Positions 16,640-45,148 are shown, numbered from the stretch's first letter. The stretch is DNA of 56,889 nt from Oscillospiraceae bacterium (GCA_902803575.1 CADCQK010000259.1:1-56889), one strand, 5' to 3'. The notes: generated by a model from the letters alone, not told the origin. Numbers and translations are program-made.

Positions 16640-16641
16640 CC

Positions 16642-28019: not shown

Positions 28020-29000
28020 ATGATTCGAATTTACGGAACCCTTGGACCCGCCAGTGAGAGCAAGGAAATCCTGAAAGAAATGCTGCGCGCCGGTATGACC
28101 GGCATTCGGCTGAATCTCTCACACAGTATGCTCGCAGAGGCCGCCGCTGATCTGGATGCGCTGCGTGCGGCAGAAAAAGAGACCGGCATCCCTTCGGAGC
28201 TGCTCATCGATCTGCAGGGGCCGGAGGTGCGCATCGGAAAGCTTCCGAAACCGCTGGAGCTGGAAATAGGCAGCAGCGTCAAGTTCGGAGAAGAGATCCC
28301 GGTGCCGCTGGCGGTCCTTCAGGCGCTGCAGCCGGGACAGAAGCTGCTGCTGGATGATGGAAAGCTGCTGCTGGAGATGGTAACGGAAACCGAAGCGAAG
28401 GTGCTGCGCGGCGGAATGCTCGCCAGCCGGAAGAGCCTCGCCATCGAGGGCGTGGATCTGCACCTCCCTGCGCTGACCGACGAAGATCGCGTCAATCTGT
28501 CCCACGCAGCGGAATTTGGCGTGACCGCAGTCATGCAGCCCTTTGTGCGGGGTGCAGAGGATCTGGTAACGCTGAGAAAGGCACTGGACGACGCTGGCGG
28601 GTCCCACATCAAGATTTTTGCCAAGGTTGAGAATCAGTCCGGCGTACAGCATCTGCCGGAGCTGCTCCCTCATTGTGATGAGATCATCATTGCCCGGGGC
28701 GATCTCGGGAATGCCGTGACGCTGCTTCAGCTCCCGGCAGTGCAAAAAGAAATCGCTGCGATCTGCCGGAGGGCCGGGAAGCCGTTTCTGGTGGTGACCC
28801 AGCTACTGGCCAGCATGGAGCACGCGCCGATCCCCACCAGAGCGGAGGTCAGCGACATTTTCAACGCGGTTCAGGATGGCGCGGATTCCCTGATGCTCAC
28901 CGGGGAGACCGCCGTCGGAGCCTATCCCGTGGATTCGATTCGCTGGCTTCGGGATGCCGCAGATGCAGCTGAGGATTACAGAAATGAAAAAACGCGCTGA
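28020..29000 (+). CDS. Pyruvate kinase-like protein, barrel domains only (326 aa, no C-terminal regulatory domain)
   Basis: GTLGPAS, RLNLSHS, DLQGPEVR, KVENQSG, IIARGDLG, VTQLLASM and PTRAEVSDIFNAVQDGADSLMLTGETAVGAYP motifs. Confidence 0.8.
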   Translation: MIRIYGTLGPASESKEILKEMLRAGMTGIRLNLSHSMLAEAAADLDALRAAEKETGIPSELLIDLQGPEVRIGKLPKPLELEIGSSVKFGEEIPVPLAVLQALQPGQKLLLDDGKLLLEMVTETEAKVLRGGMLASRKSLAIEGVDLHLPALTDEDRVNLSHAAEFGVTAVMQPFVRGAEDLVTLRKALDDAGGSHIKIFAKVENQSGVQHLPELLPHCDEIIIARGDLGNAVTLLQLPAVQKEIAAICRRAGKPFLVVTQLLASMEHAPIPTRAEVSDIFNAVQDGADSLMLTGETAVGAYPVDSIRWLRDAADAAEDYRNEKTR

Positions 29001-29016
29001 AATCAGCGCGTTTTTC
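28986..29016. terminator. Bidirectional rho-independent terminator closing the minus-strand block
   Basis: AAAAA-ACGCGCTGA-AA-TCAGCGCGT-TTTT. It overlaps the stop codon at 28998-29000. Confidence 0.85.
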
Positions 29017-29022: not shown

Positions 29023-29874
29023 TCAGATAAGATCCACCGTGGCGATTCTCGGCTCGAAGCAACAGGTAGGACGGACGCAGACGATCCGGACACCGCTGGC
29101 TCTCTGGGGGCCGACCTTCATGAAGGTGGCGATCACGGAGGTGTTGCCGCCGAGACCCAGGGGTCCGATGTTGGCCTCATTCACTCTGCGGGTGATCTCC
29201 TGCTCCATGTCGCTCTGCACGTCGTAGCGGCCATCCACCTGCGCCTGGAGCATCATGGATGCAGCCTCGAAGTGGCTCCGCCCGACGCCCACCGCCAGCG
29301 TGCAGGGAGAGCAGCCCAACTGTGCTACGCCTTCCTTCGCCCAACTGACGATCTCGTCCAGCACCACCTGGGTGTTGTGCTTGTGGAACACCCGATAGGT
29401 CTTGGCACGGATGGCAGGGCCGCCGCCAAACATGAGGATGTGCAGCCGCAGCACGTTTTCCTCGCAGCGGCGCAGGAGGATCGGAGCAGGCTCCACGCCG
29501 GCGCTGTCAGGGTTCAGACCGCCGCTCTGGTCGATCCGGTGGCTGTCATCCCCCATGATCCCCATGGGGCGGCCAGGGAGCTTTCGGAGCCCCTGCCGGA
29601 CACCCTCGCGGATCTCATCCAGCATCCGACCGGTCACGGCGCAGTCCGGGCCAACCTCCAGCACCAGGTGCGGAATGCCGGAATCATCACAAAGAGGGCT
29701 GCGGTTCTGCTCCGCCGCCTCCGCATTGTCCAATACCGTCTGGAGCACCCATCTGGCCTGCTCGTTCTGCTCTTTTTCGATGGCAGCGCGGTAGGCCGCT
29801 TTTTTGTCCGCGCGGAAGGTGGAGCCGGCCTCCACCAGCGTGTCCCGCACGAGACTTACGATGTCATTTTTCAT
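29023..29874 (-). CDS. Fe-S type hydro-lyase, tartrate/fumarate subfamily, alpha subunit
   Basis: SD GGGAGGAG lies 5 nt before the ATG at 29874. The NRSPLCDDSGIPHL motif corresponds to the CQDTG motif of class I fumarases. Eleven-nt overlap with the beta gene. Confidence 0.8.
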   Translation of the reverse strand: MKNDIVSLVRDTLVEAGSTFRADKKAAYRAAIEKEQNEQARWVLQTVLDNAEAAEQNRSPLCDDSGIPHLVLEVGPDCAVTGRMLDEIREGVRQGLRKLPGRPMGIMGDDSHRIDQSGGLNPDSAGVEPAPILLRRCEENVLRLHILMFGGGPAIRAKTYRVFHKHNTQVVLDEIVSWAKEGVAQLGCSPCTLAVGVGRSHFEAASMMLQAQVDGRYDVQSDMEQEITRRVNEANIGPLGLGGNTSVIATFMKVGPQRASGVRIVCVRPTCCFEPRIATVDLI

Positions 29875-30373
29875 AAATGCTCCTCCCATGGGCTGCGCCG
29901 ATGATCGCAGGGTAGCGATCCACCTTGATCAGATGCAGCGCCTCCATGCCAAGCTCCGGGAAGGCCAGGACCTTCCGCTCGGAGGTCTTAGCCTCCAGCA
30001 GTGCCGTCACCGGCGGGATCACGGCATAGACCGCGTTATATTGATCCAGCGCTTGGATGGTCTCCTTGTGCAGCTCCCCTTTTCCCAGATGCAGCTTGAT
30101 GCCGGCTCTGGACAGCGGGGCGATGCTGCTTTCGATCTCCAGCTTGTTGGAGCTGGTGGGGCCGACGCCGGCCGGACTGACGGCGGTGTGGAAAATCACC
30201 TGACCTCTCAGATCCACGCCAAGCTCCCCCACGGTGCCGTCTTCGATCATTTTCAGCACCTTCGGAAGCACGGCGTCTCGTCCGCAGAGGATATAGCCGC
30301 TGATCTCAACGGTATCTCCCACCTGCAGGGCCGCTGCCGCTTCCTCTGAAATCGGTGTTTTCAATGCAATCAT
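29864..30373 (-). CDS. Fe-S type hydro-lyase, tartrate/fumarate subfamily, beta subunit
   Basis: GDTVEISGYILCGRDAVLPK and HLGKGE motifs, typical of the FumA C-terminal / TtdB domain. Confidence 0.8.
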   Translation of the reverse strand: MIALKTPISEEAAAALQVGDTVEISGYILCGRDAVLPKVLKMIEDGTVGELGVDLRGQVIFHTAVSPAGVGPTSSNKLEIESSIAPLSRAGIKLHLGKGELHKETIQALDQYNAVYAVIPPVTALLEAKTSERKVLAFPELGMEALHLIKVDRYPAIIGAAHGRSIYEK

Positions 30374-30394
30374 ATGAAATCCTCTTCATTCGAT

Positions 30395-30427
30395 TTGACT
30401 GCCTGCTCTTGCGGAACAGGCAGTCAA
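30395..30427 (-). other. Perfect 11-bp inverted repeat (intercistronic stem-loop)
   Basis: TTGACTGCCTG-11 nt-CAGGCAGTCAA between the lyase stop and the beta-subunit SD. No U-tract on the transcribed strand. Confidence 0.5.
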
Positions 30428-30435
30428 TTTGTAAG

Positions 30436-31581
30436 TTACTCATTCACGGCAAAGAGCTTTACATAGCCGCTTTCATTCTTGATCACGCCAAAGGCTCTCG
30501 CCCGGTTGTAGATCTTCTTCGCCCAGTTGGTATGGGGTCTGATCTCGTTCATTTTGTTTCCGCCGGAGCCCTTGACCACACCGCCGTTGGTGCCGAGGAT
30601 CTGACAGGCGTCGTCATATTCCTCCCTGGTCACCGCCATCAAAGCGTTGACGAACTTGACGTGGGTGGGATGGATGACCGTTCTGCCCACAAAGCCGTTG
30701 GCCTTGTCGAGGATCAGCTCCCTCAGCAGACCGTCGATCTCGTTGTTCACCAGCGGCTGACGGCGCATGAGGTAGTCCTCGATCCCGTGGTGGGGCAGCT
30801 CCTCAAACATCAGCTCCTTGGGCGCGCGGAAATACTCCCACACCGGCCCGGAGATCACATAGTCATTGTTGCGGCCGCAGATGTTGATGATGTCGCTGAG
30901 ACACTCACGGACGGTCATAATATCATAAAGACTGTAATCCACCCCGCGGCGCACACCGAACACAGAGCTGAAGTCCGTACCGCCCACGCGCACCTGCAGC
31001 ACCAGATCGTGATACTTGTCCAGGATCTTCTTGATGCCGATCAGCTGCTGCAGCCGGCTCTCCTTGTAGGCGACCTCCGGGTCCTCAATGATGGGCATGC
31101 CATAGAGGATCTCTCCGAAGCGATCGTTCAGATCCTGCAGGTAGGCATAGTACTCATAGCCGTTCTCCGCGTTGAATTTTGGAAAATTGACGCCGCAGAG
31201 AGAACGGACCTCCTGCTTGGTCAGCTTTTCCCCAAAGGCTTTGAACTGGGCCAGGTTCCGGATGCGGACGAAGATCAGCGGCACATAGTCCGGGTCCAGC
31301 GTGCCGTTGTCCACAGCCTCGGTGACCGTGGAAAGCAGATGGTGGACATTCTCCATGGCCTCCGGTACTCTCTCCTCCGGGCAGGCGTCCTCGAAGCAGA
31401 GGACCATGGTGGTCAGTCCGGGCATGGCGTGCTCCAGGATCTTCGGTGTAAAATCCTTGTACCCCGGCATATACATTGTGGCGCCCAGACAGTACTGGAG
31501 CAGCTCACGCTCCGTGTACTTGTTAAAATGCTCCGGCTCGACCACGAACTTGAAATCCGGGTTATACATGTGGTGTCTCAT
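30436..31581 (-). CDS. HpcH/HpaI aldolase / citrate lyase beta (CitE)-like TIM-barrel C-C lyase, long form (381 aa)
   Basis: The LCFEDACPEE motif corresponds to the CitE D/E-L-E-D-A metal motif. RVGGTDF and VIHPTHV motifs are also present. SD AAGGAAG lies 9 nt upstream. Confidence 0.65.
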   Translation of the reverse strand: MRHHMYNPDFKFVVEPEHFNKYTERELLQYCLGATMYMPGYKDFTPKILEHAMPGLTTMVLCFEDACPEERVPEAMENVHHLLSTVTEAVDNGTLDPDYVPLIFVRIRNLAQFKAFGEKLTKQEVRSLCGVNFPKFNAENGYEYYAYLQDLNDRFGEILYGMPIIEDPEVAYKESRLQQLIGIKKILDKYHDLVLQVRVGGTDFSSVFGVRRGVDYSLYDIMTVRECLSDIINICGRNNDYVISGPVWEYFRAPKELMFEELPHHGIEDYLMRRQPLVNNEIDGLLRELILDKANGFVGRTVIHPTHVKFVNALMAVTREEYDDACQILGTNGGVVKGSGGNKMNEIRPHTNWAKKIYNRARAFGVIKNESGYVKLFAVNE

Positions 31582-31650
31582 TTGTTGCTGCTTCCTTTCG
31601 TCTTGCCGTACCGGTATCCCTGCCGGTACAGCGGAAATCCATGGCCGGGA

Positions 31651-32553
31651 TCAGACCAGGCTGCCCTTGGGAGACCATACGGCCTCGGGGTAGTATTCGT
31701 CGATCATACGCTTGACCAGGCTGCACTGCTTGGCGCGCTTGCGGGCGTCGTCCTCGGTGCTGTCCCAGGAGTGGGTGGCAGCCACAGAGCCGCCGGTCTT
31801 CAGATAGATCGGAGCGGCAATGCGGATCATCTCCGGCACCTCGTAGTGGCGGATGAAGCCGCCGGTGGACTTGGGGTTTTCGGTGTGGATGTCGATGGGG
31901 CAGTCCACCGCCTGACGCATGGCGGCAAGCATCTGCAGCTGGATGTCACGCACCGGGTTGATGGAATCGGCGCCGATGGTCTCCAGCAGCTTGGCGGAGC
32001 AGGGGTTGCCGTGGCCCGCGTGAGCGGAAACCTTGAAGTGGCAGTCCTCGGGGATCTCGCCTGCCTTGCGCATCTCGTTTAAGATCCAGAGGCATCCCTC
32101 GTCATAGACCAGGAAGCCGCGGGCACCCAGACGGGCGGCGCGCTTCACATCCTCAATGGCGCGAATGATCTGCTCCTGACCGCGAAGACGGTAGCCCATG
32201 CGGACGCCCTCTTCGGTGTGGACGGAGGCGGAAGTGTCCGTGGTGGCGCGGGGACCGATGGCCAGAATCAGATCCGTCTGCCACTGGTGAGCAAGCTCCA
32301 CCATCTTGCCGATCTCCTGATCCGTCAGACGCATGATGCCCTGGGTCTGGGTCACACGGTGCAGATACAGGCCGTAGGAGTCCATGGCCTCCAGCAGCGC
32401 GCGCATGACCTTGGGCCCCTGAATGCCGGGGACCTCAAAGCGGAACTGGCCGCCGTCCTTGAAGCGCTTCTCAGAAGTGGGCAGATCATAAGCGTCCCCG
32501 CCGGGGAGGCCGACAGATTTCAGGAATTCTCTGGTTTGCTCCATGCTGTTCAT
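31651..32553 (-). CDS. Conserved hypothetical enzyme, probable alpha/beta barrel, family unassigned (300 aa)
   Basis: SD GGAGAAAGGA lies 7 nt before the ATG at 32553. The sequence is globular with alternating hydrophobic and charged segments, plus His-rich segments SAHAGHGNP and IDIHTEN. The opposite-strand ORF is low-complexity. Confidence 0.6.
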   Translation of the reverse strand: MNSMEQTREFLKSVGLPGGDAYDLPTSEKRFKDGGQFRFEVPGIQGPKVMRALLEAMDSYGLYLHRVTQTQGIMRLTDQEIGKMVELAHQWQTDLILAIGPRATTDTSASVHTEEGVRMGYRLRGQEQIIRAIEDVKRAARLGARGFLVYDEGCLWILNEMRKAGEIPEDCHFKVSAHAGHGNPCSAKLLETIGADSINPVRDIQLQMLAAMRQAVDCPIDIHTENPKSTGGFIRHYEVPEMIRIAAPIYLKTGGSVAATHSWDSTEDDARKRAKQCSLVKRMIDEYYPEAVWSPKGSLV

Positions 32554-32589
32554 GTTCAAATCCTTTCTCCGGCAGTGCCGGACGATGTA

Positions 32590-33720
32590 TTATCCGTTCA
32601 GATCGTCGATCAGTTCGTCGATGGCCGCCCGGTGATCGAAAATGATTGGCGGCAGCTTCCGGGTCAGTCCCTTGTGGATGCGGCAGTCGATGAAGGCTGC
32701 CTTGCCGCAGTCCTTCAACTGAGAAATGGCCTCAATCAGTTCTTCTTTCGTGGTGACCGCGTGGCCGACGGTCGCGTAGCCGCAGGCCTCCGCCGCTTTG
32801 GTAAAGTCCACAAGATGTCCCGCCGAGGGCTGACCGCCCACGGACTCATGGGCGCCGTTGTTCAGCACCACATGGAGGAAGTTTGGCGCCTGCACCTTGC
32901 TGACCATGGTCATGGCACCCATGTGCATCATGGCGGCGGAGTCGCCGTCCAGCGCCACGACGTGCCGTTCCGGTCTGGAAAGCGCGATCCCCAGGGCAAC
33001 CGAGGAGCAATGTCCCATGCTTCCCACATTCAGGAAATCCCGGGCTTTCGTCTCTCCCCGCTTCTCTCTGAGGAAAAACAGTTCTCTGGTGGCGCGTCCG
33101 GTGGTGGCACTGTAGACGGTAACCTCCGGCATGTGGTCGAGGATCACCTCAATGGCCTCTTCCCTGCTCATGGGATAGACATCATCCACATTGTTGGGCT
33201 TGTCGGGATCCGCCATGACGCCCTTGGGAGCAATGAGCGCGTAGATGCCGCGGGTCTCTTTGCAGTAGGTCACCGCTCGCTCCACGGTCTCGCTGAACTT
33301 CCGGTCGTCATCCTCCAGAATCGTATAAGGGATGTGCATCACATCCAGCAGACCCGGGGTGATCTCCCCCTGGAGCTTGTGCTGGGGGTGGTTTGGCTCT
33401 GTGTTTCCCTGGCCGCGCCAGCCGATCAGCAGCAGCATCGGAACAGCGTAAACGTCCCGGTCTGCCAGGCTGGCCAGGGGGTTAATGGTGTTGCCCATGC
33501 CGCTGTTCTGCATGTAGACCAGCGGGATCTCTTTGGTGGCGAAGTAATGCCCCGCCGCGATGCCCACGGCGTTGCCCTCATTGGCGGCGATCACGTTCCG
33601 ATCGCCGCAGTGGAGAAGCGCATAGTTGCAAAACCCGTTCAGATAGGAGTCCGGCACACCGGTGAAATAGGTCACGCCGTGATCCCGGAGGGTTTGAAAT
33701 ACGTTGTTCTGGTCCAGCAT
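32590..33720 (-). CDS. Single-chain ThDP-dependent decarboxylase of the phosphonopyruvate / sulfopyruvate decarboxylase family
   Basis: N-terminus YFTGVPDSYLNGF, then ANEGNAVGIAAGHY, LVYMQNSGMGNTINPL, LLLIGWRG, and a ThDP motif region ALDGDSAAMMHMGAM...NNGAHESVG. At 376 aa it is a fused alpha+beta form. Confidence 0.75.
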   Translation of the reverse strand: MLDQNNVFQTLRDHGVTYFTGVPDSYLNGFCNYALLHCGDRNVIAANEGNAVGIAAGHYFATKEIPLVYMQNSGMGNTINPLASLADRDVYAVPMLLLIGWRGQGNTEPNHPQHKLQGEITPGLLDVMHIPYTILEDDDRKFSETVERAVTYCKETRGIYALIAPKGVMADPDKPNNVDDVYPMSREEAIEVILDHMPEVTVYSATTGRATRELFFLREKRGETKARDFLNVGSMGHCSSVALGIALSRPERHVVALDGDSAAMMHMGAMTMVSKVQAPNFLHVVLNNGAHESVGGQPSAGHLVDFTKAAEACGYATVGHAVTTKEELIEAISQLKDCGKAAFIDCRIHKGLTRKLPPIIFDHRAAIDELIDDLNG

Positions 33721-34701
33721 TTACTTTTTCTCGCCCCCTACCGAGCCCTTGCCCTTGTAGAGCGTGAAATACTCCGGGCTGTCGCCCTTGGTGATGGCCC
33801 AGGCCTGCTCAAAGGCCTCCACCACGTCCTCCGGCAGCGGGCCGGCCTGGATGGTCTTCATGTTCTGCTGCAGATGGTTCAGCTTGGAGGCGCCGATGAG
33901 GATCGCGTCCCCCCGGTCGCCGTTCAGCATCGAATGATAGGCCAGCCAGCGGTAGGTGGCCTCGATGCTGGTAATGCCGTGCTTTGCCGCAGCGGCTTTG
34001 ATGAGATCCACCGCGTCAAAGAAGCTCTTCTTCCAGTAGCGTCCCTGATAGTTGGGCCGATGGGTGAACCGGCCGTCGGTGGGCGCGTCCGTATAGGAGC
34101 CGTACTTGCCTGTCAGCAGACCGCCGCACATGGGGTTATAGGCATAAAACCGCATGCCGAAATGGTTCAGACAGTCGTTGAGCTCCGCCTCGGCTCTGCG
34201 GGTCAGCGGATTGTAAACACCCTCGAAGACCGTGGGCTTCACCCAGCCGTGCCTGTCGCAGATGTGCCACACGTCGGTGACCATCCAGGCCGGGAAATTG
34301 GAAATGCCCAGTTCCTTGAATTTGCCCTGATCATGGAGATCCGCCATGGCCTCCAGAACGGAGATCACGGGCGTGGCGGGGTCCGGGAAATGCAGGAACA
34401 TGATGTCCGCGCAGTCCAGCTTCATCCGCTCCAGGCTCTCGTTGACCTGCATATAGGCCGCTTCCGCGTCCAGCTTGCCGGTGATGCGGGGATTCACCTT
34501 TCCCGCGATCTTGAAGGGCCGGTTCAGGTTCGGCAGCACCTCGCCCAGCAGCCGCTCGCAATTGCCCTCGTTATAAACATAGGCAGTGTCCAGCTCATCG
34601 TAACCCGCATCCAGAAATGCGTTGATAAAAGACTCCACATCCGGGGAAAACACGGATTCCCCGAAGGTCATGGTCCCAAGAATCAGTTTTACGTTGTTCA
34701 T
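33721..34701 (-). CDS. Aldo/keto reductase
   Basis: LGTMTFG, LDTAYVYNEG, HFPD and a LIGASKLNHLQQN-type C-terminus. The stop TAA abuts the next ATG. Confidence 0.85.
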   Translation of the reverse strand: MNNVKLILGTMTFGESVFSPDVESFINAFLDAGYDELDTAYVYNEGNCERLLGEVLPNLNRPFKIAGKVNPRITGKLDAEAAYMQVNESLERMKLDCADIMFLHFPDPATPVISVLEAMADLHDQGKFKELGISNFPAWMVTDVWHICDRHGWVKPTVFEGVYNPLTRRAEAELNDCLNHFGMRFYAYNPMCGGLLTGKYGSYTDAPTDGRFTHRPNYQGRYWKKSFFDAVDLIKAAAAKHGITSIEATYRWLAYHSMLNGDRGDAILIGASKLNHLQQNMKTIQAGPLPEDVVEAFEQAWAITKGDSPEYFTLYKGKGSVGGEKK

Positions 34702-34715
34702 GCCATCACTCCTCC

Positions 34716-36050
34716 TTATAGTTCCCTGATCAGGGCATCGACCGGGGCATCGGTCCGATATGCGGTTTGATAGACCGAATTGCTTGTGTCAGGCGAGATG
34801 CCGGCGTATTCCATCAGACCGTCGTAGCGCTCCCGGAATTCCCGGTCATCCAGCGGGTTTTCCGGCTCCCCTTTCGGGAAATCCACGCGGTCGGTGAAAG
34901 TGCCGTCCTTCGTGCGGATCGTGACCACCGCCGCCTGTACATCGGGGAACACGGCACTCAGCTCCGCATCCGCAGAAACCTTGACCTTTTGAGTCAGATC
35001 CAGGACCGCGGCGCCCTGCACAGCCTCCTCCGTGAACTCCTGCAAGCCCGCTTTCCCAAAGAGCAATCCCGCCGCCGTGGCGTAGGGGATGCTCATTTTG
35101 GCGCTGTAGCTGCCGGGGATCTCCGTATGGTCATGGCCGCTGACAGCGAGATCATAGGTCCGGATCGAAATCGATTCCACATCCTCCGGCTTCACCCTGC
35201 TGCGCAGATGGATCGCCGCCTCCACCGCAGGGTGGGTATAGCGGCAGGAGGCATAGGGCTTCGTATAAGACTTCATGATGGCATAGGTGCCATTCAAGAA
35301 CACCGGCTGCAATTCAACAGATTCCTTGCCGGTCATCATCTTCAGAAAGCCGCGGCCGCCCAGCGGGTCGCTGTGTCCTTTGAATCCGCTCCTGGCCAAT
35401 TGCAGCGCCGTGAGCGAAAGCAGCGCCGTCTTAGCCACATTATAGGGCTTCAGCTCACTGCCGTCATCCAGCACCTTCAACATGCCGCTGGCAGCCACAC
35501 AGGCACAGGCAAAGGCCTGAAACCGCTCCTCCTCCGAGAAGTCCAGCAGATAGGCTGCCGCCAGCGTTGCGCCCAGCGTGCCGCAGGTGCCGGTGGCGTG
35601 GTAGCCCATGGCCTTGTGCCCTGGCTGGATGGACACTGCCATGGTGTAGGACGCCTCATAGCCGGTTATCGCCGCCCGGAGCATCTCATCCACTGAAAAA
35701 CCATATCGCTGGCACAGCGGGATCAGCAAACTGAAGATCGGGCTTCCCAGATGGATGATGCCGGAGTTGGTGCCATCGTCAAAATCCAGCGCGTGCCCGT
35801 TCAGGCCGTTCAGAAAGACCGCTTCCTTCAGCACCAGATCCCTTCCGGTTCCGATGGCGCGGAAGGCGCCCTGCTCCGGCTCCGCGAAGGCGAAATAGCG
35901 ATCCAGCTTTTCTCTCTGGAATCTCGCCCCGGCGCAGGTCACAGCCAGATAATCCAGCAGGCTTCGACGCGCGCGGGCCATGACGGTCTCCGGAACCGGT
36001 TGATTCCACACGCCGTCAATGGCTTTCAAAAAATCGATCGATTGATTCAC
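34716..36050 (-). CDS. MmgE/PrpD family protein, paralog 1
   Basis: GTG start 7 nt after GGAGG. ARRSLLDYLAVTCAGA, ALDFDD and HLGSPIFSLL motifs, with the two-domain PrpD layout. Confidence 0.8.
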   Translation of the reverse strand: MNQSIDFLKAIDGVWNQPVPETVMARARRSLLDYLAVTCAGARFQREKLDRYFAFAEPEQGAFRAIGTGRDLVLKEAVFLNGLNGHALDFDDGTNSGIIHLGSPIFSLLIPLCQRYGFSVDEMLRAAITGYEASYTMAVSIQPGHKAMGYHATGTCGTLGATLAAAYLLDFSEEERFQAFACACVAASGMLKVLDDGSELKPYNVAKTALLSLTALQLARSGFKGHSDPLGGRGFLKMMTGKESVELQPVFLNGTYAIMKSYTKPYASCRYTHPAVEAAIHLRSRVKPEDVESISIRTYDLAVSGHDHTEIPGSYSAKMSIPYATAAGLLFGKAGLQEFTEEAVQGAAVLDLTQKVKVSADAELSAVFPDVQAAVVTIRTKDGTFTDRVDFPKGEPENPLDDREFRERYDGLMEYAGISPDTSNSVYQTAYRTDAPVDALIREL

Positions 36051-36102: not shown

Positions 36103-37893
36103 TCACGGGACAGAAACCTGTACAAAATCGCTGGAGATCTGACCATAGTCGGTCTCGAACTCCACCTTCAGAAGCCATGTGCCCGAATCGTGATTCGTGA
36201 GCACATAGCCGTTGGCCTGCTCCTCCGCTGTGAGGGCGTAAGCGCGGGAAACCGCCATATAGTCCCGGCTGGTCTTCGACAGAACACCGCCGGCATTGTT
36301 GGTATCCGGGTAGCACCAGGCATACCAGGTCGGCTTTGCGTTGGAGGAGGAGAATGTGAGCTTCACATTGCCGTCCTCCAGAACCTCGGCGCCGATCCGG
36401 GTATCGACCACGAGGAAGCTGGCGGGGCGGCTCTGCCCCTCGGGCCCGGTCAGAAACACCTGATAGGATCCGCTGCTGAGATCTTCGTACCGCAGGCAAA
36501 AATCCTCCGGAATCGCCGAAACAGAGACCACTTCGCTGCCCCGTGTGAGCACGGCGCGCTCATAGCTTGCCGCGTTCATTACATCGATCTCCACCGTCTC
36601 TCCCAGGGGCCAGTTGGCCTTGTCGCCCCGTCTGGGACAGAGGTTTTCGTTCAGATGGAAGTGCTTTTCCCAGGAAGTATCCGCAGGCGGAACGTCGTTG
36701 ATCTTCGTATAGCGGTAGATATCATACCCAGCATTGAGCCAGTTGTCGTTGAATTCCCGGCGGGAATAGGTGCGGACGCGAACCTGGGGGGCGCGGGCTT
36801 CCGCTTCCACCAGGTTTATGATCCTGCCGTCCGGAGTGCGCTCCACACCGACGATCATGCAGACGTGGGAGTCCCGCTTCAGGATCATGTCCCCCAGGCG
36901 AATGTTGTCGATGCTCTGATCTTCCAGATACACCAGCCCGTCCAGCAAGCCCAGCTGATGGGTCGTATAGATGCAGGGCAGATCGTAGTTATAGCTGATG
37001 AACGACGAACACACGGAGCCATAGTAGGTGCGGCTGTTCCGCAGCTCGGAAACTCTGGTATAGAGATAGGACTTCGGGTTGCTCGCGGCGCTCAGATAGC
37101 TTTCGAAGGAGACCGCGTTGGGCACATACAGCGACTCCTGACGGGTCGAGGAATACATGACCCCATCCACCCGGGTGTCAGGCGCCACGTCCCCCTTCTG
37201 CCCCGGCAGGACCGCCCGGGTGACGATGGAGAGTTCCACGCTCTGCATGGCGCGGTCAATGGCGTTGCGCACGCCCTGGCTGTTCGGCAGGTCGTGAAAA
37301 AGATTCAGCTTCAGATCCGAGACGATGGAGCAGCCTTCAGGCAGCCGGAAATGCTCTGCGTCAAAAGCCGTTCCGTCTGCATAGCCCAGAATAAAAACCG
37401 CATAGCTCGCACCGCTGACGTCGCCGGCGCTGACGGTTCGGGACACTGCGGAAAACTCAGTTCCCCACAGGAATCGGAAATCCGAATCGAAATAGCCAAC
37501 TAAGTATTGCAGCCCGGACGCTGGGTCCCATGTGACTTCGATGGTGCCAAGAGGCCAGAAGCCGGAGCGGAGCCGATTCTCGTTAACGGTATTGTCGCCG
37601 GATCCGTTGGAGACCCGAATGCCGCCAAGAACAAAGTCATCCACCGCAAAACGCCCCGGGACCAGATTCGTTTGGTTCATATCCTGTCCCCCCGCTTCCC
37701 GGAGTACCGCAAACTGCAGCGGGTCCACCGGCGTCGGTGTGGGCGTCTGCTGTACGGGAGTCGGCGCAGTTGTCGGTTCCGCCAGCACATCGCTGGGATC
37801 CGGCTGCCCTGCCACAGGTGCAGCGGTGCCGCATCCGGTCACAAGCATTATGAGTATAATACAAAATAAAAAACAGGTAAGCTGTCTTCCCAT
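36103..37893 (-). CDS. Lipoprotein with a putative NlpC/P60-like (papain-fold Cys-His) domain
   Basis: SD GGGAGA lies 7 nt before the ATG at 37893. Lipobox LVTGC and a Pro/Thr linker. Candidate nucleophile YGSVCSSFISY (Cys310 in track numbering) and GDMILKRDSHVCMIVGV (His358). Confidence 0.55.
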   Translation of the reverse strand: MGRQLTCFLFCIILIMLVTGCGTAAPVAGQPDPSDVLAEPTTAPTPVQQTPTPTPVDPLQFAVLREAGGQDMNQTNLVPGRFAVDDFVLGGIRVSNGSGDNTVNENRLRSGFWPLGTIEVTWDPASGLQYLVGYFDSDFRFLWGTEFSAVSRTVSAGDVSGASYAVFILGYADGTAFDAEHFRLPEGCSIVSDLKLNLFHDLPNSQGVRNAIDRAMQSVELSIVTRAVLPGQKGDVAPDTRVDGVMYSSTRQESLYVPNAVSFESYLSAASNPKSYLYTRVSELRNSRTYYGSVCSSFISYNYDLPCIYTTHQLGLLDGLVYLEDQSIDNIRLGDMILKRDSHVCMIVGVERTPDGRIINLVEAEARAPQVRVRTYSRREFNDNWLNAGYDIYRYTKINDVPPADTSWEKHFHLNENLCPRRGDKANWPLGETVEIDVMNAASYERAVLTRGSEVVSVSAIPEDFCLRYEDLSSGSYQVFLTGPEGQSRPASFLVVDTRIGAEVLEDGNVKLTFSSSNAKPTWYAWCYPDTNNAGGVLSKTSRDYMAVSRAYALTAEEQANGYVLTNHDSGTWLLKVEFETDYGQISSDFVQVSVP

Positions 37894-37981
37894 CCGGCAT
37901 TCTCCCGCGGTGTATTCGAAAAAGCGGATCATCCGCATCTGATTTGTTTTTTCCGGAAACGCCGGAACCGGCAGCCTGAAA

Positions 37982-38728
37982 TCAATGCACAGACCGCGCT
38001 CTCAGGCGTCCGTAAATGCTGAACAGCTGGCGGTCCTCCACGTTTCCGGAAAACTGAAACGCATCGTCGCTCCGCGTCAGAATCATCTCCAGAGGAACCT
38101 CCGGCACCACCTCATGGCGGTAGTCGATGGCGGCGAAGGCCACCTCATACTGCCGCATGGCCTCGATCCCAAAGCTGTTGCACAGCCAGTCGGCATATCT
38201 CGCGTTGTTGACATGTCCATTGATGTCGATATCGGCGTATTGGGGCTGATGCCGAAAGCGCTTCTCTTCACCGGAAAGAGACTTGACGCCCATGGAGATC
38301 TTCACGGGCGGCACTGCCTCCTCCGCATCGGGGATCACAATGCCCCGTTCCGCCGGTGAGACCGCCTTTCTGGTGGTGCGGTCCATCAGCATCAGCAGTG
38401 AGCCGATGCGGACGATCACCGCCCCCCGCGCGTCCGTTACCAGATAGTATCTCGGACAGAACATGGAGCGGGAGCCCTTGGTGAAGGTTCGCACCGTGAC
38501 GCTTTCTCCGAGGCGCGGGTATCGATCCACATAGAGATCGGTCTTGAACAAAACCCATGAGAGATTCTGCTCGGTCAAATCATCATGCCACAGATGCATT
38601 GCAGCGCTGTGCTCGTTGGCCGTGCTCTGGGCCATCTCCAGAACGGAGCGCAGCATCCATTGGCCGTTGATGTCGCACTCACTGGTGCCAAGGTGAAATC
38701 GCTTTTCAAAAAAGGCCTGTGGATCCAT
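37982..38728 (-). CDS. Acyl-ACP thioesterase (FatA/FatB type)
   Basis: Starts MDPQAFFEKRFHLGTSECDINGQWMLRSVLEMAQ. Contains a NLSWVLFK motif and a second hotdog half with ADIDINGHVNNARY. Confidence 0.8.
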   Translation of the reverse strand: MDPQAFFEKRFHLGTSECDINGQWMLRSVLEMAQSTANEHSAAMHLWHDDLTEQNLSWVLFKTDLYVDRYPRLGESVTVRTFTKGSRSMFCPRYYLVTDARGAVIVRIGSLLMLMDRTTRKAVSPAERGIVIPDAEEAVPPVKISMGVKSLSGEEKRFRHQPQYADIDINGHVNNARYADWLCNSFGIEAMRQYEVAFAAIDYRHEVVPEVPLEMILTRSDDAFQFSGNVEDRQLFSIYGRLRARSVH

Positions 38729-38735
38729 GGTTATC

Positions 38736-40079
38736 TCACCCCCGGAGCCATTCCATCGGGTTGCAGAACGGTCGATCCGACGAAATCTCTCCGATTGCCC
38801 TCTGCAGTCCCGCAAGCTGAACCTCATCTGCGAGACCCTGGGCACATACCCGCAGCTTGGCAACGATGTCCTCTGCCGAAAGCGGATTCTCCGGGTCTCC
38901 CTTCGGCACCAGAACCGTCTGCTTCAAACGCCGGCCGCCGCTGGTCAGAATCTCGATCCTGGCGCCGCGGATGCCTCTGCTGCGATCCTCCATGGTTTCA
39001 TCCGGAATCAGCTGGATCCGGTCAATCATGGATCTGATCGAATCGGTCAGACGACCCGGCTGCATATCCTCAACACCGTAGCTGCCGTTCAGCAGGGCGC
39101 AGGCCAGCGTGTACGGGATGGAAAACTTGGTTTCATCCGGATCCCTGGGATACGGGATTCCGGCAAGCTTGATGGCATTGGGATAAATGAAGACGTTGAC
39201 CGTCCGAATCTCCTCCGCCTGCACCTGATCGTGCAGCAGGATCCCCGCGTCAATGCCGCAGTGGGTATGACGGCAGGAGGGATAGAGCTTAAAATAGCAG
39301 TCGTGCAGCAGCAGATGATCCGAGCCGCGCAGACAGCTTTCATCCACATGATCCGTCACGGCATGGAACCAGCCGTTTGGCCCCTCAAGAGACTCCGTGG
39401 GGCCAAGCATGCCTTCCCTGGCGAGCATCGCAGCGAAGATGCCGTTCTCTGCCGCCTTGCCTGGATTGAGCGGCTTGATCGCCGGTCTGGAATCTCCATA
39501 GGACAACAGGCCGCCGGACATGGTGGTGGCAAGAGCAATGGCGTTTTCAAGCCCATTCGCATCCAGGTGATACAGCCGCGCACAGGCAGCTGCACAGGCC
39601 AGAGTGCCTGCCATGCCGGTGGAGTGAAATCCGTGCTGCACCAGCCCGGGCTGCGCCGCCGAGGAGATGCGGATATACGCCTCATAACCCGCAGCGAGGG
39701 CCAGCAGCACGTCATTTCCGGTGCTGCCCAGCTTTTCTCCCAGGGCAAACACAGCGGGAATCAAATGCACGCCCGCGTGTCCGGCTGCCTTCTTGTTTCC
39801 GTCATCCAGCTCGGCGCCGTGACCATAGACAGCGTTCATAAAGGCCGCCAGTCGGGCGGGATATTTTGTTTTCTGAAAGAGCACCGTGCTCTCTGCAGCG
39901 CCGCCCTGCGCATACACCACCGTCTCCACCGCGTCGTTGAAGACCCGGTTCTGTCGATAGCCGGCGCAGGCAGCCGCGAAAAAGTCGGTGATCAGGATCT
40001 GCAGCTGCGATACATCCCGCTCTGAAAGGTTACAGATCGAAACAAGATCGCGCGCCAGTTCCGTTGTCATACCGCCCAT
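38736..40079 (-). CDS. MmgE/PrpD family protein, paralog 2
   Basis: ITDFFAAACAGY, ELDDGN, HAGVHLIPAVFAL, PSCRHTH and a PKGDPENPL motif near the C-terminus. Confidence 0.8.
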   Translation of the reverse strand: MGGMTTELARDLVSICNLSERDVSQLQILITDFFAAACAGYRQNRVFNDAVETVVYAQGGAAESTVLFQKTKYPARLAAFMNAVYGHGAELDDGNKKAAGHAGVHLIPAVFALGEKLGSTGNDVLLALAAGYEAYIRISSAAQPGLVQHGFHSTGMAGTLACAAACARLYHLDANGLENAIALATTMSGGLLSYGDSRPAIKPLNPGKAAENGIFAAMLAREGMLGPTESLEGPNGWFHAVTDHVDESCLRGSDHLLLHDCYFKLYPSCRHTHCGIDAGILLHDQVQAEEIRTVNVFIYPNAIKLAGIPYPRDPDETKFSIPYTLACALLNGSYGVEDMQPGRLTDSIRSMIDRIQLIPDETMEDRSRGIRGARIEILTSGGRRLKQTVLVPKGDPENPLSAEDIVAKLRVCAQGLADEVQLAGLQRAIGEISSDRPFCNPMEWLRG

Positions 40080-40108
40080 TGCTTGCGTTCCCTTCTGATT
40101 TAAAAAGT

Positions 40109-41380
40109 TTATGCCTTAGATTTTTTCGAAAGCTTCTTTCTCAGCTTCCGGTAATCTGCCTTATCGATGAACAGCATGGTTCGAAACGGGATCCCGGTGG
40201 TGCGGCAGAAATACACGATAAACAGGACAGAGCAGACCGCATAGGAGATGACGCTGGCGAGACCGGCGCCGTAGATTCCGGAGATTGGGATCAGGATCAG
40301 GTTTGCAACCACGTTGCTCAATACGCCGATCCCCAGCAGGACAAAGCTCACAACCTGCTTGCCCATGGCAATGTTGTAAGAGGCGATGAGCTTATAATAG
40401 ATCATCGAAAACACACCGGCGAGCAGGATCAATGTGACCTGATACGCGCCGCTGAACTCGCTGCCAAAGGCAAAATCAATGAAGGGCTTGCCCAGCGCGA
40501 TAATGCCCAGCACAATCACCAGACAAACCGTGTTGCTGATACGGATGACATACGCCGTCTCCCGGGCATCCTTGCCCTTGGCGATGTTGGAAACCATGAC
40601 GCCCTTCATGGCGTCGGGGATCATCCAGATCCGCTCCGCCAGAAGCACGCCGACGGAATACACACCGATGGCTGCATCCGCCACACGGCCGTTGAGCATC
40701 AGGACGTCTACCCGATAATTCAGGGTGGTCATCAGCAGAGAGAGCATCGGGAAAAAGCCGAATTTCACCAGCTTCGGGATCCAGATCTTCAAAGACTCCG
40801 AGGGGACAAAAAACCGCTTTCTCCACCAGCCGGTATAGATGAGTGCCTTGGCGACGTCCTTGATGGTGATGACAAACACACCGATGACGAAGGTGGGCTT
40901 CGCTGTGATCCAGAGGATGACCAGGATCACCAGCTCTGCGAACACCACGGCCATGTCTGAGACGCTTCGCTTGTTCGGCACCTCAATCAGCGTGATGTAA
41001 GAGACGATCTTATCGTAGGTCAGCAGCGGCGTGAGAATCAATACGGCGATGTATTTCGCAGGCAGGTCCATCACGGCGATCGCCGCCGCCGAAATTGCCC
41101 CGTAGAAGAGCAGCAGCAGCAGCGAGAGCTTCATGAAGATGGGCATGATATCCACATCGCTGTTGCGCTTGAAGTAGGGATAGGCGTGATAGATGCCCAG
41201 ACCGAACACGATGGAGGTGATGCTGACGATGCTGTTGACCGTCGCCACCTGCCCCTTAATCTCCGCGCCGAGGTATCGGGACTGGAAGATGGTGAAAACC
41301 AGGCCCACCACAACGCCGAACACTTTCGATATGACGGATAAGGAATATGCGTTTGTGAAGAACTTTTTAATTCCGCTCAT
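40109..41380 (-). CDS. Polysaccharide flippase (Wzx, MOP superfamily)
   Basis: About 12 predicted TM segments. N-terminus SVISKVFGVVVGLVFTIFQSRYLG is typical of the Polysacc_synt family. Confidence 0.8.
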   Translation of the reverse strand: MSGIKKFFTNAYSLSVISKVFGVVVGLVFTIFQSRYLGAEIKGQVATVNSIVSITSIVFGLGIYHAYPYFKRNSDVDIMPIFMKLSLLLLLFYGAISAAAIAVMDLPAKYIAVLILTPLLTYDKIVSYITLIEVPNKRSVSDMAVVFAELVILVILWITAKPTFVIGVFVITIKDVAKALIYTGWWRKRFFVPSESLKIWIPKLVKFGFFPMLSLLMTTLNYRVDVLMLNGRVADAAIGVYSVGVLLAERIWMIPDAMKGVMVSNIAKGKDARETAYVIRISNTVCLVIVLGIIALGKPFIDFAFGSEFSGAYQVTLILLAGVFSMIYYKLIASYNIAMGKQVVSFVLLGIGVLSNVVANLILIPISGIYGAGLASVISYAVCSVLFIVYFCRTTGIPFRTMLFIDKADYRKLRKKLSKKSKA

Positions 41381-41415
41381 GAACTGCTCCTTGCTGTCGC
41401 TCCGGCGATGAATGC

Positions 41416-42885
41416 TCAGGCAAGGGCGATCAGCTGCTTTCTGTCGACCTTACCGTTGTAGGTTCTGGGGATCTCCGTAAGCGGCTCGATGAACTTCGGC
41501 ACCTTATAGGCCTCCAGCTTGGCCGCCAGGAACTCCGCGATCTCTACAGCGTCGAAGCTGCAGCCGTCCTTCATGACGACGAACATCTTCAGGCTTTTCC
41601 CGAACATATTGTCATCAAAGGGGATGCAGGCGCAGTCGGCCACCTTCTCAAACCGAAGGAGCATATCCTCCACCTCGGTGGGCGCCACCTTGAATCCGCG
41701 GATGTTGACAACATCATCCCCTCTGCCGGCAAAGTGCAGACAGTGTCTGTCATCAAAGAACATCAGATCTTTGCCGTAGATGTATCCATCCTTCAGCACC
41801 GAGGCAGTCAGCTCCGGCTCATGATAGTAGCCGAGCATGTTCATATCGCTCTTAGAGCAGATCAGGCCTTCTTTGAAGGGCTCGGTGATCTCATTTCCGT
41901 TCTCGTCCAGGAGCTTCACTTCCACCGACGGATACGGCACGCCCAGGCTGTTGATGGTCTCCCCCGGCGCGTTGTACTGGCAGTTGCAGATGCTGCCGGT
42001 CTCACTGCTGCCGTAGCCCTGGTGAAGCCTGGTGTCCGGCAGAAGCTCCATGAGCGTCTCAATGTCCTTCGTGGGGAAGGGCGCGGAGGCAGTGTAAACA
42101 AACTCCAGCTTGCCGTTGAGTGCGGCCAGCTGCTTTTTAGCAAGGGTGATCAGCATCTTCACAGAGGCCGGCGGCAGATAGGTGTGGGTTACCCCATACT
42201 GATTGGCCAGCTGGAAAAACGCGCGCAGATTCTGCACCCCGTCCAGCAAGATCACGGTGCAGCCAACCGCCATGCACTGGTGTACCCGGTGCAGACCGCC
42301 CACATGGTTCAGCGGCGTGGTCACCAGGAACACAGAGTCCTCTTTGAGGCCGAAGGAAGGGTTGATCGCCGCCATATAGGCCTCAAGGCATTTGGAGGAG
42401 AGCATGACGCCTTTGGATTTTCCGGTGGTGCCGGTGGTAAAGATAATCTCCGAGCAATCCGGAGAGACCCCTGCCGGCGTCCAGTCGAAATCCGTCTCAC
42501 GGTCCATATCCACATCAGCAGCGGAGATCCAGTGAAACTCTCCTGCAGGCTGCTCGGGTGAGATCACAAACGCCGCATCCACAAAACCCGCGATATCGGA
42601 AAGACGGTCCACCGGGGCGCGGTTCTCCGCCGGGATATGCACAGCGCCGATGCCCAGCAGCGCATACTCGCAGACGATGTATTCCGCGCTGGGCGTGGCC
42701 ATGGACAGCACATGGCTGCCGGGTTTTACGCCTTTGGAAAGGAACCAGGCCGCTGCGGAACTGATTTTTTGATACAGCTCCTGATAGGTAAGGCACGCGT
42801 CGCCGACGACGAGCGCAAGCTTCTCCGGGGTCTCAATGGCATGCTGCCGGATCAGCCCGGTAACTGACAAGTGTTCCGCGTTCAT
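41416..42885 (-). CDS. ANL-superfamily adenylating enzyme (acyl/aminoacyl--carrier-protein or CoA ligase)
   Basis: SD GAGGTGA lies 8 nt before the ATG at 42885. AMP-binding motifs IIFTTGTTGKSKGV, YGSSETG and GKVDRKQL. Confidence 0.85.
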   Translation of the reverse strand: MNAEHLSVTGLIRQHAIETPEKLALVVGDACLTYQELYQKISSAAAWFLSKGVKPGSHVLSMATPSAEYIVCEYALLGIGAVHIPAENRAPVDRLSDIAGFVDAAFVISPEQPAGEFHWISAADVDMDRETDFDWTPAGVSPDCSEIIFTTGTTGKSKGVMLSSKCLEAYMAAINPSFGLKEDSVFLVTTPLNHVGGLHRVHQCMAVGCTVILLDGVQNLRAFFQLANQYGVTHTYLPPASVKMLITLAKKQLAALNGKLEFVYTASAPFPTKDIETLMELLPDTRLHQGYGSSETGSICNCQYNAPGETINSLGVPYPSVEVKLLDENGNEITEPFKEGLICSKSDMNMLGYYHEPELTASVLKDGYIYGKDLMFFDDRHCLHFAGRGDDVVNIRGFKVAPTEVEDMLLRFEKVADCACIPFDDNMFGKSLKMFVVMKDGCSFDAVEIAEFLAAKLEAYKVPKFIEPLTEIPRTYNGKVDRKQLIALA

Positions 42886-42917
42886 GTTTCCGATCACCTC
42901 TCCAAAACCAACTGGAA

Positions 42918-43154: not shown

Positions 43155-43170
43155 GGGAATTACCTCCGAT

Positions 43171-44457: not shown

Positions 44458-44541
44458 TCTTTCGGTTTCCCTCCATCATTTCTCAGACTGACCGACCGGC
44501 GCGCCAGCCAGCGCTCCCCATCCGGTAAACGCATGGCGGCG

Positions 44542-45105: not shown

Positions 45106-45148
45106 GTAGATTCCTCCATTTTCAGATGCGCATCATGCGCTGCGGGTC

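Follow-up and report, generated by a model that had tools for sequence, protein, structure and literature searches.

A conserved seven-gene cassette of carboxylate-type enzymes in a surface-polysaccharide locus of an Oscillospiraceae bacterium

Seven co-directional open reading frames (ORFs) fill positions 29023-36050 on the minus strand of a 56,889-nucleotide stretch of DNA from an Oscillospiraceae bacterium (GCA_902803575.1, CADCQK010000259.1:1-56889; this whole stretch is called the window). Sequence families were called with Pfam and NCBIfam profiles and, together with the ORF calls, they bear out the first-pass annotation of this DNA, which had listed the same seven genes in the same order. 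This uncharacterised cassette is very common and unusually conserved, and by its kind it would be a small-molecule synthesis module inside a capsule locus; a published description of the seven-gene combination was not found in the literature. The explanation that we favour, and to which we give an even chance of being right, is that the seven genes form a self-contained carboxylic-acid-processing module which here serves a cell-surface polysaccharide locus. In the order of transcription, the features are the following.

34716-36050, minus strand: PrpD1, a MmgE/PrpD-family protein of 444 aa, putative hydroxy-polycarboxylate dehydratase (Pfam PF03972 and PF19305)
33721-34701, minus strand: aldo-keto reductase (AKR), 326 aa, putative aldehyde reductase (PF00248, E = 2.7e-56)
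32590-33720, minus strand: thiamine diphosphate (ThDP)-dependent decarboxylase of the phosphonopyruvate/sulfopyruvate decarboxylase family, 376 aa (TIGR03297, 397.6 bits)
31651-32553, minus strand: divergent peptidase-U32-like TIM-barrel protein, 300 aa (no family match of its own; relatives match PF01136)
30436-31581, minus strand: PF15617 'C-C_Bond_Lyase' TIM barrel, CitE/HpcH-like, 381 aa, putative Claisen/aldol C-C synthase or lyase (E = 3.6e-112)
29864-30373, minus strand: Fe-S hydro-lyase beta subunit, class I fumarase/TtdB type, 169 aa (PF05683 Fumerase_C, E = 3.1e-21)
29023-29889, minus strand: Fe-S hydro-lyase alpha subunit, class I fumarase/TtdA type, 288 aa (PF05681 Fumerase, E = 3.4e-48)
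28987-29016, no strand assigned: hairpin able to terminate both strands, at the end of the cassette and of a convergent pyruvate kinase gene (13-bp stem with 6 G-C pairs, T run)

The spacing between the genes of the cassette ranges from a 26-nt overlap to 69 nt. The hairpin stands directly after the alpha-subunit gene, with a matching A run ahead of its stem in the plus-strand sequence. The 52-nt gap ahead of PrpD1 showed no strong hairpin of the terminator type, so transcription of the cassette may begin further upstream, within the same-strand glycan-synthesis genes. An Rfam search of the window and of four related loci at the gathering threshold gave no riboswitch that could name a ligand.

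The cassette recurs in many other genomes. Related loci were collected with the U32-like gene as probe, so that the presence of this gene in all of them is uninformative. Within this set, 43 distinct loci, which come from different species, have all seven proteins at full length, more than 60% identical to those of the window and in the same order in the synteny table. Both the idea of a conserved unit, in which look-alikes of tricarboxylic acid (TCA) and methylcitrate cycle enzymes surround a decarboxylase-reductase pair, and the expected co-localisation of the genes in other genomes are thereby upheld. The mean pairwise identity is 90.6% for the U32-like protein, 83.9% for the lyase, 79.0% and 78.1% for the alpha and beta subunits of the hydro-lyase, 73.4% for the decarboxylase, 71.7% for the reductase and 70.1% for PrpD. 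The U32-like gene is thus the most conserved gene of the cassette, a degree of constraint that is unusual for an enzyme of an accessory pathway; participation in a multi-protein complex or a large substrate are possibilities.

The GC content of the cassette follows that of its flanks (r = 0.93, n = 75), and the GC content at third codon positions of the U32-like gene varies from 0.23 to 0.93 across hosts while the protein remains 85-99% identical (L001-L084). Composition that tracks the host, combined with high protein identity, indicates that the copies are long-resident ones which have drifted to the composition of their hosts under very strong purifying selection, rather than fresh transfers. 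A plasmid search returned only distant U32-like genes of 34-45% identity and gave no sign of a plasmid-borne cassette. In a clustered protein database the U32-like protein has 5,393 matches at E <=0.001, each of them a 90%-identity cluster, and the best 120 are 84-95% identical. A scan of a genome collection with a 3-sequence alignment found U32-like relatives in at least 460 species genomes. The best 80 of these 460 (89-98% identical) were examined, a choice that under-samples distant cassette variants; their hosts include Oscillospiraceae, Lachnospiraceae, Acutalibacteraceae and Erysipelotrichaceae as well as metagenome-assembled genomes (MAGs) of Spirochaetales and Victivallales. Most hosts are rumen or gut bacteria, and the named isolates include Hungatella effluvii, Acetatifactor muris, Sarcina sp. 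and Butyricimonas muris. The 90%-identity cluster of the lyase also includes Parabacteroides distasonis, thus the cassette and its gene order recur across phyla, Bacteroidota among them, and the Parabacteroides lyase copy is listed in 14,659 index blocks of public assemblies.

The decarboxylase passes TIGR03297, the phosphonopyruvate decarboxylase (Ppd) model, with 397.6 bits against a cut-off of 312.5, and it groups with phosphonopyruvate decarboxylases as opposed to ordinary 2-oxoacid decarboxylases, in agreement with the first-pass assignment. Its best match in the PDB is to the putative Ppd subunits of 9iz3, and E48 and the GDS-X25-NN ThDP motif are retained. The reductase keeps D38, K68 and H104 invariant across 67 orthologs, at positions that fit the AKR catalytic residues, and in the related loci it is always gained or lost jointly with the decarboxylase.

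Taken at face value, the TIGR03297 score and the PDB match favour a phosphonate decoration, in which phosphonopyruvate would be supplied by a phosphoenolpyruvate (PEP) mutase encoded elsewhere, or by a new C-P bond-forming activity of the U32-like protein, and would end as 2-hydroxyethylphosphonate, or as phosphonolactate in a variant of the cassette. Phosphonate genes of Bacteroides lie in capsule loci, as this cassette does, and the pepM gene usually adjoins the decarboxylase gene, a place that is occupied here by the U32-like gene; both points speak for the phosphonate. So does the resemblance between the two forms of the cassette, one with the decarboxylase and reductase and one with a SerA-like dehydrogenase, and the two known fates of phosphonopyruvate, i.e. 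Ppd followed by a reductase, or VlpB-type reduction (PMC8942020). Malate dehydrogenase and fumarase acting on phosphonate analogues, beside ATP-grasp genes, have also been predicted (PMC8942020), which may be counted on the same side.

The enzyme that would make the phosphonate is, however, missing. None of the six reading frames of the 56,889-base window contains the EDKxxxxxNS motif of PEP mutase (PepM), an enzyme that about 5% of bacterial genomes encode (PMC8942020). In a search that covered the window and 84 related 20-kb loci (1.44 Mb), as opposed to whole host genomes, a true PepM was present in two loci only (L023 and L071), and 82 of the 84 had none within 10 kb. In L023 (16040-20489), about 3 kb from the cassette, there is a double nucleotidyltransferase-PepM fusion (TIGR02320, 400 bits) with an iron-containing alcohol dehydrogenase (Fe-ADH) and a Ppd of its own, which scores 449.2 bits with TIGR03297 and is 41% identical to the cassette decarboxylase. 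Since this PepM has its own Ppd and Fe-ADH, the arrangement marks the cassette decarboxylase as a separate paralog. L023 also allows a true Ppd to be compared with the cassette paralog within one natural locus. In L071 (about 15800-17900) PepM alone was seen, a few kb from the cassette. Furthermore, a phosphonate module so widespread would be expected to carry its own C-P bond-forming enzyme. The U32-like protein has none of the motifs of the isocitrate lyase (ICL)/PEP mutase family, and its relatives lie beside fumarase subunits, malic enzyme and carboxylate transporters. Finally, PrpD and the fumarase-type enzyme would have no obvious role on the way to 2-hydroxyethylphosphonate.

It is instructive to compare the cassette with known phosphonate systems. 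PepM-Ppd capsule cassettes such as aepXYZ of Bacteroides fragilis share with it a decarboxylase that passes TIGR03297, a subsequent aldehyde-processing enzyme and the location in a surface-polysaccharide locus; nucleotidyltransferase-PepM fusions are found in such cassettes (PMC6697681), and an inventory of the branch points is available (PMC8942020). The cassette differs from them by the lack of PEP mutase in the window and in 82 of the 84 related loci, by an AKR in place of the 2-aminoethylphosphonate transaminase or Fe-ADH, and by five extra carboxylate-type enzymes. The FR-900098, phosphinothricin and pantaphos pathways are similar in as much as look-alikes of central metabolism are recruited to work on an analogue of a TCA intermediate. 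These pathways start with PepM and use paralogs of homocitrate synthase, aconitase and isocitrate dehydrogenase, whereas the cassette has CitE-, PrpD- and class I fumarase-like enzymes and no PepM. The phosphonate, which headed the first-pass annotation, is therefore disfavoured, and we consider it quite improbable.

A sulfonate is disfavoured as well, and to a still greater degree. The route would lead from sulfopyruvate via sulfoacetaldehyde to isethionate, or to sulfolactate in the variant, with the fumarase-type enzyme working on sulfoacrylate or sulfolactate and the TIM barrel in a ComA-like role. The decarboxylase family does include ComDE (domain-level matches with E = 1e-23 and 3e-29), and a dehydrogenase of the Ldh_2 family, to which the sulfolactate dehydrogenase ComC belongs, is encoded next to the U32-like gene in L092 and, on the other strand, not far from it in L093. 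Transporters of the tripartite ATP-independent periplasmic (TRAP) type serve sulfonates in the gut (PMC13335735). On the other hand, the scores with the sulfopyruvate decarboxylase models are far under the cut-offs (83.9 bits against 147.95 for ComD, TIGR03845, and 102.1 against 221.5 for ComE, TIGR03846), while the Ppd model is passed. No match to the ComA family PF02679 was found among the seven cassette proteins at the default cut-off (the rest of the window was not exhaustively scanned), and the 300-aa U32-like protein has none even at E up to 10. The cassette contains no phosphatase, and the malic enzyme and tricarboxylate transporters of related operons point to ordinary carboxylates. 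The sulfonate, the second chemistry proposed for the locus by the first-pass annotation, is in our view very improbable indeed.

The other enzymes of the cassette are of the carboxylate type. PrpD1 has clear MmgE_PrpD_N and MmgE_PrpD_C domains (E = 1e-39 and 6.5e-35) and scores only 23-28 bits with the PrpD equivalogs TIGR02330, NF006943 and NF042438, the cut-offs of which are 458-950; its orthologs in the related loci are 64-89% identical. A divergent paralog, PrpD2, stands in its place in 8 loci, and 4 loci have both, as does the window. Elsewhere an ATP-grasp gene is often found directly before each PrpD paralog (L045, L020, L030, L050, L097), which hints that PrpD-type proteins may act on ligase products. 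The PF15617 lyase matches the profile over its full length, has an invariant E64-D65 pair and shows weak matches to CitE, citrate lyase 3qll and CLYBL profiles that cover the IHP motif. Its score with the CitE equivalog is 25 bits (cut-off 443), and searches of the PDB gave marginal CitE and CLYBL matches only. It is 56-59% identical in the variant cassette and is missing from 4 otherwise similar loci (L045, L050, L058, L064).

Both subunits of the hydro-lyase are present in every related locus that is long enough to show them. The alpha subunit scores 97.5 bits with TIGR00722 (cut-off 100.65) and the beta subunit 80 bits with TIGR00723, also under the cut-off. The equivalog models give 101 versus 276 bits (fumarase) and 51 versus 365 bits (TtdA) for alpha, and 78 versus 238 bits (fumarase) and 62 versus 264 bits (the TtdB side of TtdAB) for beta. 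Cys67 and Cys196 of the alpha subunit are invariant, and Cys276/277 is kept in 79 of 82 sequences. With the two-subunit class I Fe-S hydro-lyases, i.e. archaeal-type fumarase, L-tartrate dehydratase TtdAB and mesaconase, the pair shares the alpha/beta architecture, the domains PF05681 and PF05683 and the cysteine ligands; it differs by its scores under the fumarase and TtdAB equivalog cut-offs and by its constant association with the U32-like barrel, in loci that were probed with the latter. The retention of key residues in the decarboxylase and reductase and of the Fe-S ligand cysteines suggests that the enzymes are intact.

In its logic the cassette resembles the methylcitrate cycle (PrpC, PrpD, aconitase, PrpB), where a C-C synthase, a PrpD dehydratase, an Fe-S hydratase and a TIM barrel that frees a 2-oxo acid follow each other. 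The differences lie in the families: the synthase is of the CitE/PF15617 type, not of the citrate synthase type, the hydratase is of the class I fumarase type, not an aconitase, and the TIM barrel is U32-like, not of the ICL/PEP mutase family. None of the seven proteins matched a methylisocitrate lyase of the PrpB/ICL family (Pfam, NCBIfam). By analogy, the cassette may work like a methylcitrate cycle followed by decarboxylation and reduction, even though no enzyme in it scores as a member of that cycle. PF15617 and the PF15632 ATP-grasp were reportedly defined by Anantharaman, Iyer and Aravind in 2012 in the Ter-associated biosynthetic module. The cassette has in common with this module the PF15617 lyase accompanied by ATP-grasp ligases, some of which match ATPgrasp_Ter weakly; it lacks the phosphoribosyltransferase, HAD and Ter genes, and its context is glycan synthesis instead of tellurite resistance.

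The 300-aa protein had been left unassigned by the first-pass annotation. This is correct for the window copy as regards family matches (PF01136, E = 0.057, 13.1 bits against a gathering score of 22.4), yet the protein can be identified as a divergent U32-like TIM barrel, for 22 of 26 diverse relatives match PF01136 at E <=1 (best E 7.7e-8). A model built with AlphaFold2 from a deeper alignment has a predicted local distance difference test (pLDDT) value of 92.5, and its best Foldseek match is the U32 structure 5d88 (Mk0906; TM-score 0.42-0.50), followed by class II aldolases; with TM-scores of about 0.4-0.55 for these leading matches, the modelled fold appears to have no close solved relative. 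Sequence and profile searches of the PDB gave nothing significant. A first model, from a shallow alignment (pLDDT 79), had retrieved a mixture of class II aldolases, methylisocitrate lyases and U32 proteins. The PrpB structures, which had a TM-score of about 0.47 with that model, are outside the top 50 with the confident one, the Foldseek list of which does not support a PrpB-like or PEP-mutase-like identity.

The U32 family includes the anaerobic hydroxylases UbiU/UbiV, TrhP and RlhA, and cysteines of the UbiU/UbiV type hold a 4Fe-4S cluster. The cassette protein resembles peptidase U32 in the TIM-barrel fold, the best Foldseek match and the weak but consistent PF01136 matches of its relatives. 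It differs in that it has neither the conserved Fe-S cysteines nor the U32 C-terminal domain, and in its contexts, which are carboxylic and sugar acids rather than hydroxylation of RNA or quinones. Alignments of 26 and 51 sequences contain no conserved cysteine column. In the gut clade four cysteines each occur in 73-83 of 89 sequences, i.e. not in all, and the idea of an Fe-S hydroxylase was rejected, as the cysteines are not conserved across the family. Arginines and acidic side chains are abundant among the invariant residues (D33, E40, R102, D106, E134, R138, D151, K174, R213, D221, R235, R244, K252, H261), and R102, R138, R213, R235 and R244 belong to a pocket rich in arginine.

The neighbours of the U32-like relatives are informative. 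Copies 54-56% identical to that of the window are found in operons of the order U32-like gene, fumarase alpha, fumarase beta and malic enzyme (L092 7904-12688, L094 9001-12732, L095 9001-15032), with TctABC or TRAP transporters nearby; in L094 the U32-like gene also adjoins that of a regulator of the PrpR type. The hosts, namely Thermovenabulum gondwanense, an Acetomicrobium MAG and a further Firmicute, represent Firmicutes and Synergistota that are thermophilic or anaerobic, and the operon is probably an unrecognised catabolic route for a di- or tricarboxylate. More distant copies lie in catabolic loci for acid sugars or hydroxy acids in Geobacillus, Brevibacillus, Paenibacillus and Thermomicrobium, where KdgD-like, GarD-like, MR_MLE, IlvD/EDD, LarA, 2-Hacid_dh and TRAP genes are the neighbours. 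Still others, in Kutzneria and on a plasmid of Enterobacter, belong to biosynthetic-looking clusters and have oxidoreductase and aminotransferase genes as neighbours. The plasmid cluster (pE20191216 of Enterobacter chuandaensis, L100 6907-15870) comprises phosphotransferase, U32-like, hypothetical, NAD(P) oxidoreductase and aminotransferase genes together with those of an iron-containing redox enzyme, an M14 peptidase and an MFS transporter, and looks like a small-molecule biosynthetic cluster. What the interpretable contexts share is the chemistry of carboxylic acids, as a rule in the company of an NAD(P)-dependent oxidoreductase, either one for 2-hydroxy/2-oxo acids or another; an Anaerolineae locus (L087) has no such neighbours.

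One could also speculate that the U32-like barrel and the Ppd-like decarboxylase constitute a PEP-mutase-free route to a 3-substituted pyruvate with a C-P or C-S bond. We see this as a long shot. If it were true, the capsules of major gut commensals, among them Parabacteroides distasonis and many Clostridia, would bear 2-hydroxyethylphosphonate, phosphonolactate or a sulfonate as decoration, and the U32-like protein would be a previously unknown bond-forming enzyme.

A further indication of the chemistry comes from a variant cassette. The decarboxylase and reductase are both missing from 11 loci, all of them in glycan contexts, and by the overall count the ten of these whose upstream sequence suffices carry a SerA/GhrB-like 2-hydroxyacid dehydrogenase gene instead. 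Nine have it immediately upstream of PrpD, and L079 has it ahead of the U32-like gene; no such gene was detected in L074, and the sequence of L021 is too short for a judgement. L034 carries both modules. A 2-hydroxyacid dehydrogenase in place of the decarboxylase and reductase points to a shared 2-oxo acid, and, read most simply, it means that the core enzymes supply a 2-oxo acid which is then either decarboxylated and reduced, or reduced directly to a D-2-hydroxy acid. The substrate of the decarboxylase is most likely an oxaloacetate-like 2-oxo-dicarboxylate, i.e. a 3- or 4-carboxy-substituted 2-oxo acid, and not phosphonopyruvate. Thus, the carboxylate option is the best supported of the three chemistries proposed initially, because of the dehydrogenase variant, the fumarase, malic enzyme and TRAP or Tct transporter genes next to U32-like relatives, and the acid-sugar catabolic loci.

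The surroundings of the cassette suggest what the product is for. The first-pass annotation did not mention that the cassette lies among surface-glycan genes, and it had counted the convergent pyruvate kinase homolog with the block. These two features are as follows.

36103-50298, minus strand: same-strand surface-glycan genes upstream of the cassette (Pfam and NCBIfam)
28020-29000, plus strand: pyruvate kinase of 326 aa, barrel domain alone, without the C-terminal regulatory domain (TIGR01064, 317.6 versus 306.4 bits)

The pyruvate kinase gene is real, but as a pathway member it was set aside, since among the other loci it is found only in L005. Toward the cassette, the glycan region encodes in turn a dTMP-kinase-like protein, a DegT/LegC-like aminotransferase, two ATP-grasp ligases, a priming phosphoglycosyltransferase, a 428-aa protein, an AMP-ligase, a flippase-like protein, PrpD2, an acyl-ACP thioesterase and a 611-aa predicted lipoprotein; the AMP-ligase, flippase-like, thioesterase and PrpD2 genes occupy 37982-42897 (minus strand). 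The lipoprotein (36103-37938, minus strand), which lies between the glycan genes and the cassette, has a signal peptide and an LVTGC lipobox in its translation, gave no Pfam or NCBIfam match and is kept at 89% identity in L005. On the other side, beyond the pyruvate kinase, an LCP/CpsA glycopolymer transferase is encoded. No transporter or LysR gene adjoins the cassette in the window, as judged from Pfam and NCBIfam matches of the neighbours, and both the window and its near-twin L005 represent a glycan-type setting. Further away, a 723-aa protein with SLH, SH3b and NlpC/P60 domains (21087-23258, plus strand) identifies the host as a Firmicute whose wall is of the S-layer type and fits a wall-glycan role of the neighbouring loci.

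Across the 84 related loci the setting is of the glycan type only in 36 (ATP-grasp, DegT, RmlA/B, priming transferase and flippase genes), of the transporter type only in 15 and of both types in 11, while 22 are too short to tell. Glycan genes are even interleaved with those of the cassette. In L039 an ATP-grasp gene is inserted between the U32-like gene and the lyase, and in the variant-B loci a priming transferase and an ATP-grasp gene separate the hydro-lyase from the dehydrogenase. In P. distasonis CL03T12C09 (GCA_000307455.1, L097 1-12527) the cassette is at the 3' end of a capsule locus, where a GT2-Wzy-Wzx block parts PrpD and two ATP-grasp genes from the other six cassette genes; a second locus (L096) keeps the cassette with different genes upstream. 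The glycan role is proposed because ATP-grasp, priming transferase and GT2/Wzy/Wzx genes are interleaved with the cassette, and because glycan genes stand upstream of it in the window.

The transporter-type setting is the basis of the main rival explanation. According to this, the cassette would be a catabolic or fermentative operon for an acid of dietary or host origin (trans-aconitate, tartrate, or an aldarate- or uronate-derived acid), which the cell would take up, hydrate or dehydrate and cleave; the 2-oxo acid so formed would be decarboxylated and reduced as an electron sink, and the position among glycan genes would be incidental. In many loci PrpD is directly preceded by genes for a LysR regulator and a fused TRAP permease, and three have GPH glucuronide-type symporters beside the cassette (L052, L053, L068), the first of them also a beta-glucuronidase. 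The U32-like/fumarase/malic enzyme operons with their Tct or TRAP transporters and PrpR-type regulator look catabolic, so do the acid-sugar loci of the more distant copies, and the hosts are mostly rumen or gut bacteria. Against it stand the interleaved glycan genes of L039, variant B and P. distasonis, the 11 transporter-linked loci that have glycan or ATP-grasp genes too, and the lack of a transporter or LysR gene beside the cassette in the window. The dietary-acid operon, which the first-pass annotation had named as an outcome that would refute its own view, thus remains partly open, with a LysR-plus-transporter version in some genomes and glycan loci in others; on balance we think it unlikely.

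The carboxylic-acid module serving a surface polysaccharide can be formulated as a sequence of reactions, the outcome of which would most likely be a surface sugar polymer decorated with a small hydroxy acid made from a di- or tricarboxylic acid, not a phosphonate. Firstly, the CitE-like PF15617 enzyme would join a 2-oxo acid and an acyl thioester to give a hydroxy acid of the substituted malate or citrate type, a step that seems dispensable in some genomes. Secondly, the PrpD-family dehydratase and the two-subunit Fe-S hydro-lyase would remove and re-add water so that the hydroxyl group is moved, much as PrpD and aconitase do in the methylcitrate cycle. Thirdly, the U32-like TIM barrel would act as a lyase or dehydratase that gives rise to a 2-oxo acid, which is the assignment with the least certainty. 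Fourthly, the Ppd-like enzyme would decarboxylate the 2-oxo acid to an aldehyde, and the AKR would reduce the latter to a primary alcohol, i.e. an omega-hydroxy acid; here the enzyme families are observed and the substrates are predicted. In the sister version of the cassette the same 2-oxo acid would be reduced to a D-2-hydroxy acid instead. Finally, the neighbouring ATP-grasp ligases would attach the hydroxy-carboxylate to an amino sugar or another acceptor on the polymer. Carboxylate chemistry is best supported by the dehydrogenase variant and by the fumarase, malic enzyme and carboxylate transporter neighbours of the U32-like relatives.

There are several points that weigh against this proposal. 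The order of the first three steps and the reaction of the U32-like protein are inferred, and with plain oxaloacetate or 2-oxoglutarate as the 2-oxo acid there would be no need for the four or five enzymes that precede it. The decarboxylase is above the curated cut-off of an equivalog model for phosphonopyruvate decarboxylase and 41% identical to a genuine PepM-linked enzyme, so that a phosphonate or sulfonate substrate, though disfavoured, is conceivable. About 26 loci have LysR and a fused TRAP-type permease, or GPH symporters, adjoining the cassette, which gives them a catabolic look, and of the 59 loci with enough upstream sequence, only 15 have an ATP-grasp gene immediately before the first PrpD. 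The product of variant A would, moreover, need a second carboxylate as a substrate for the ATP-grasp enzyme, which we assume. Several product guesses, each of which fits some of the data, were set aside: 3-hydroxypropionate or D-malate from oxaloacetate, 2,4-dihydroxybutyrate from 4-hydroxy-2-oxoglutarate, and trans-aconitate catabolism.

The cassette lies in loci for capsule and wall polysaccharides, the molecules at which gut bacteria meet the immune system and phages. Since TIGR03297 is passed here by a protein that has no PEP mutase in its vicinity, metagenome calls of 'phosphonopyruvate decarboxylase' may mislead, i.e. they may not indicate phosphonate synthesis; a reading of such calls as 'fosfomycin biosynthesis' is found, for example, in PMC10117117. 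Solving the cassette would probably define a new non-sugar decoration of capsules. It would also reveal what PF15617 and an uncharacterised family of TIM barrels do, and would show the role of a phosphonopyruvate-decarboxylase-like enzyme where PEP mutase is not alongside.

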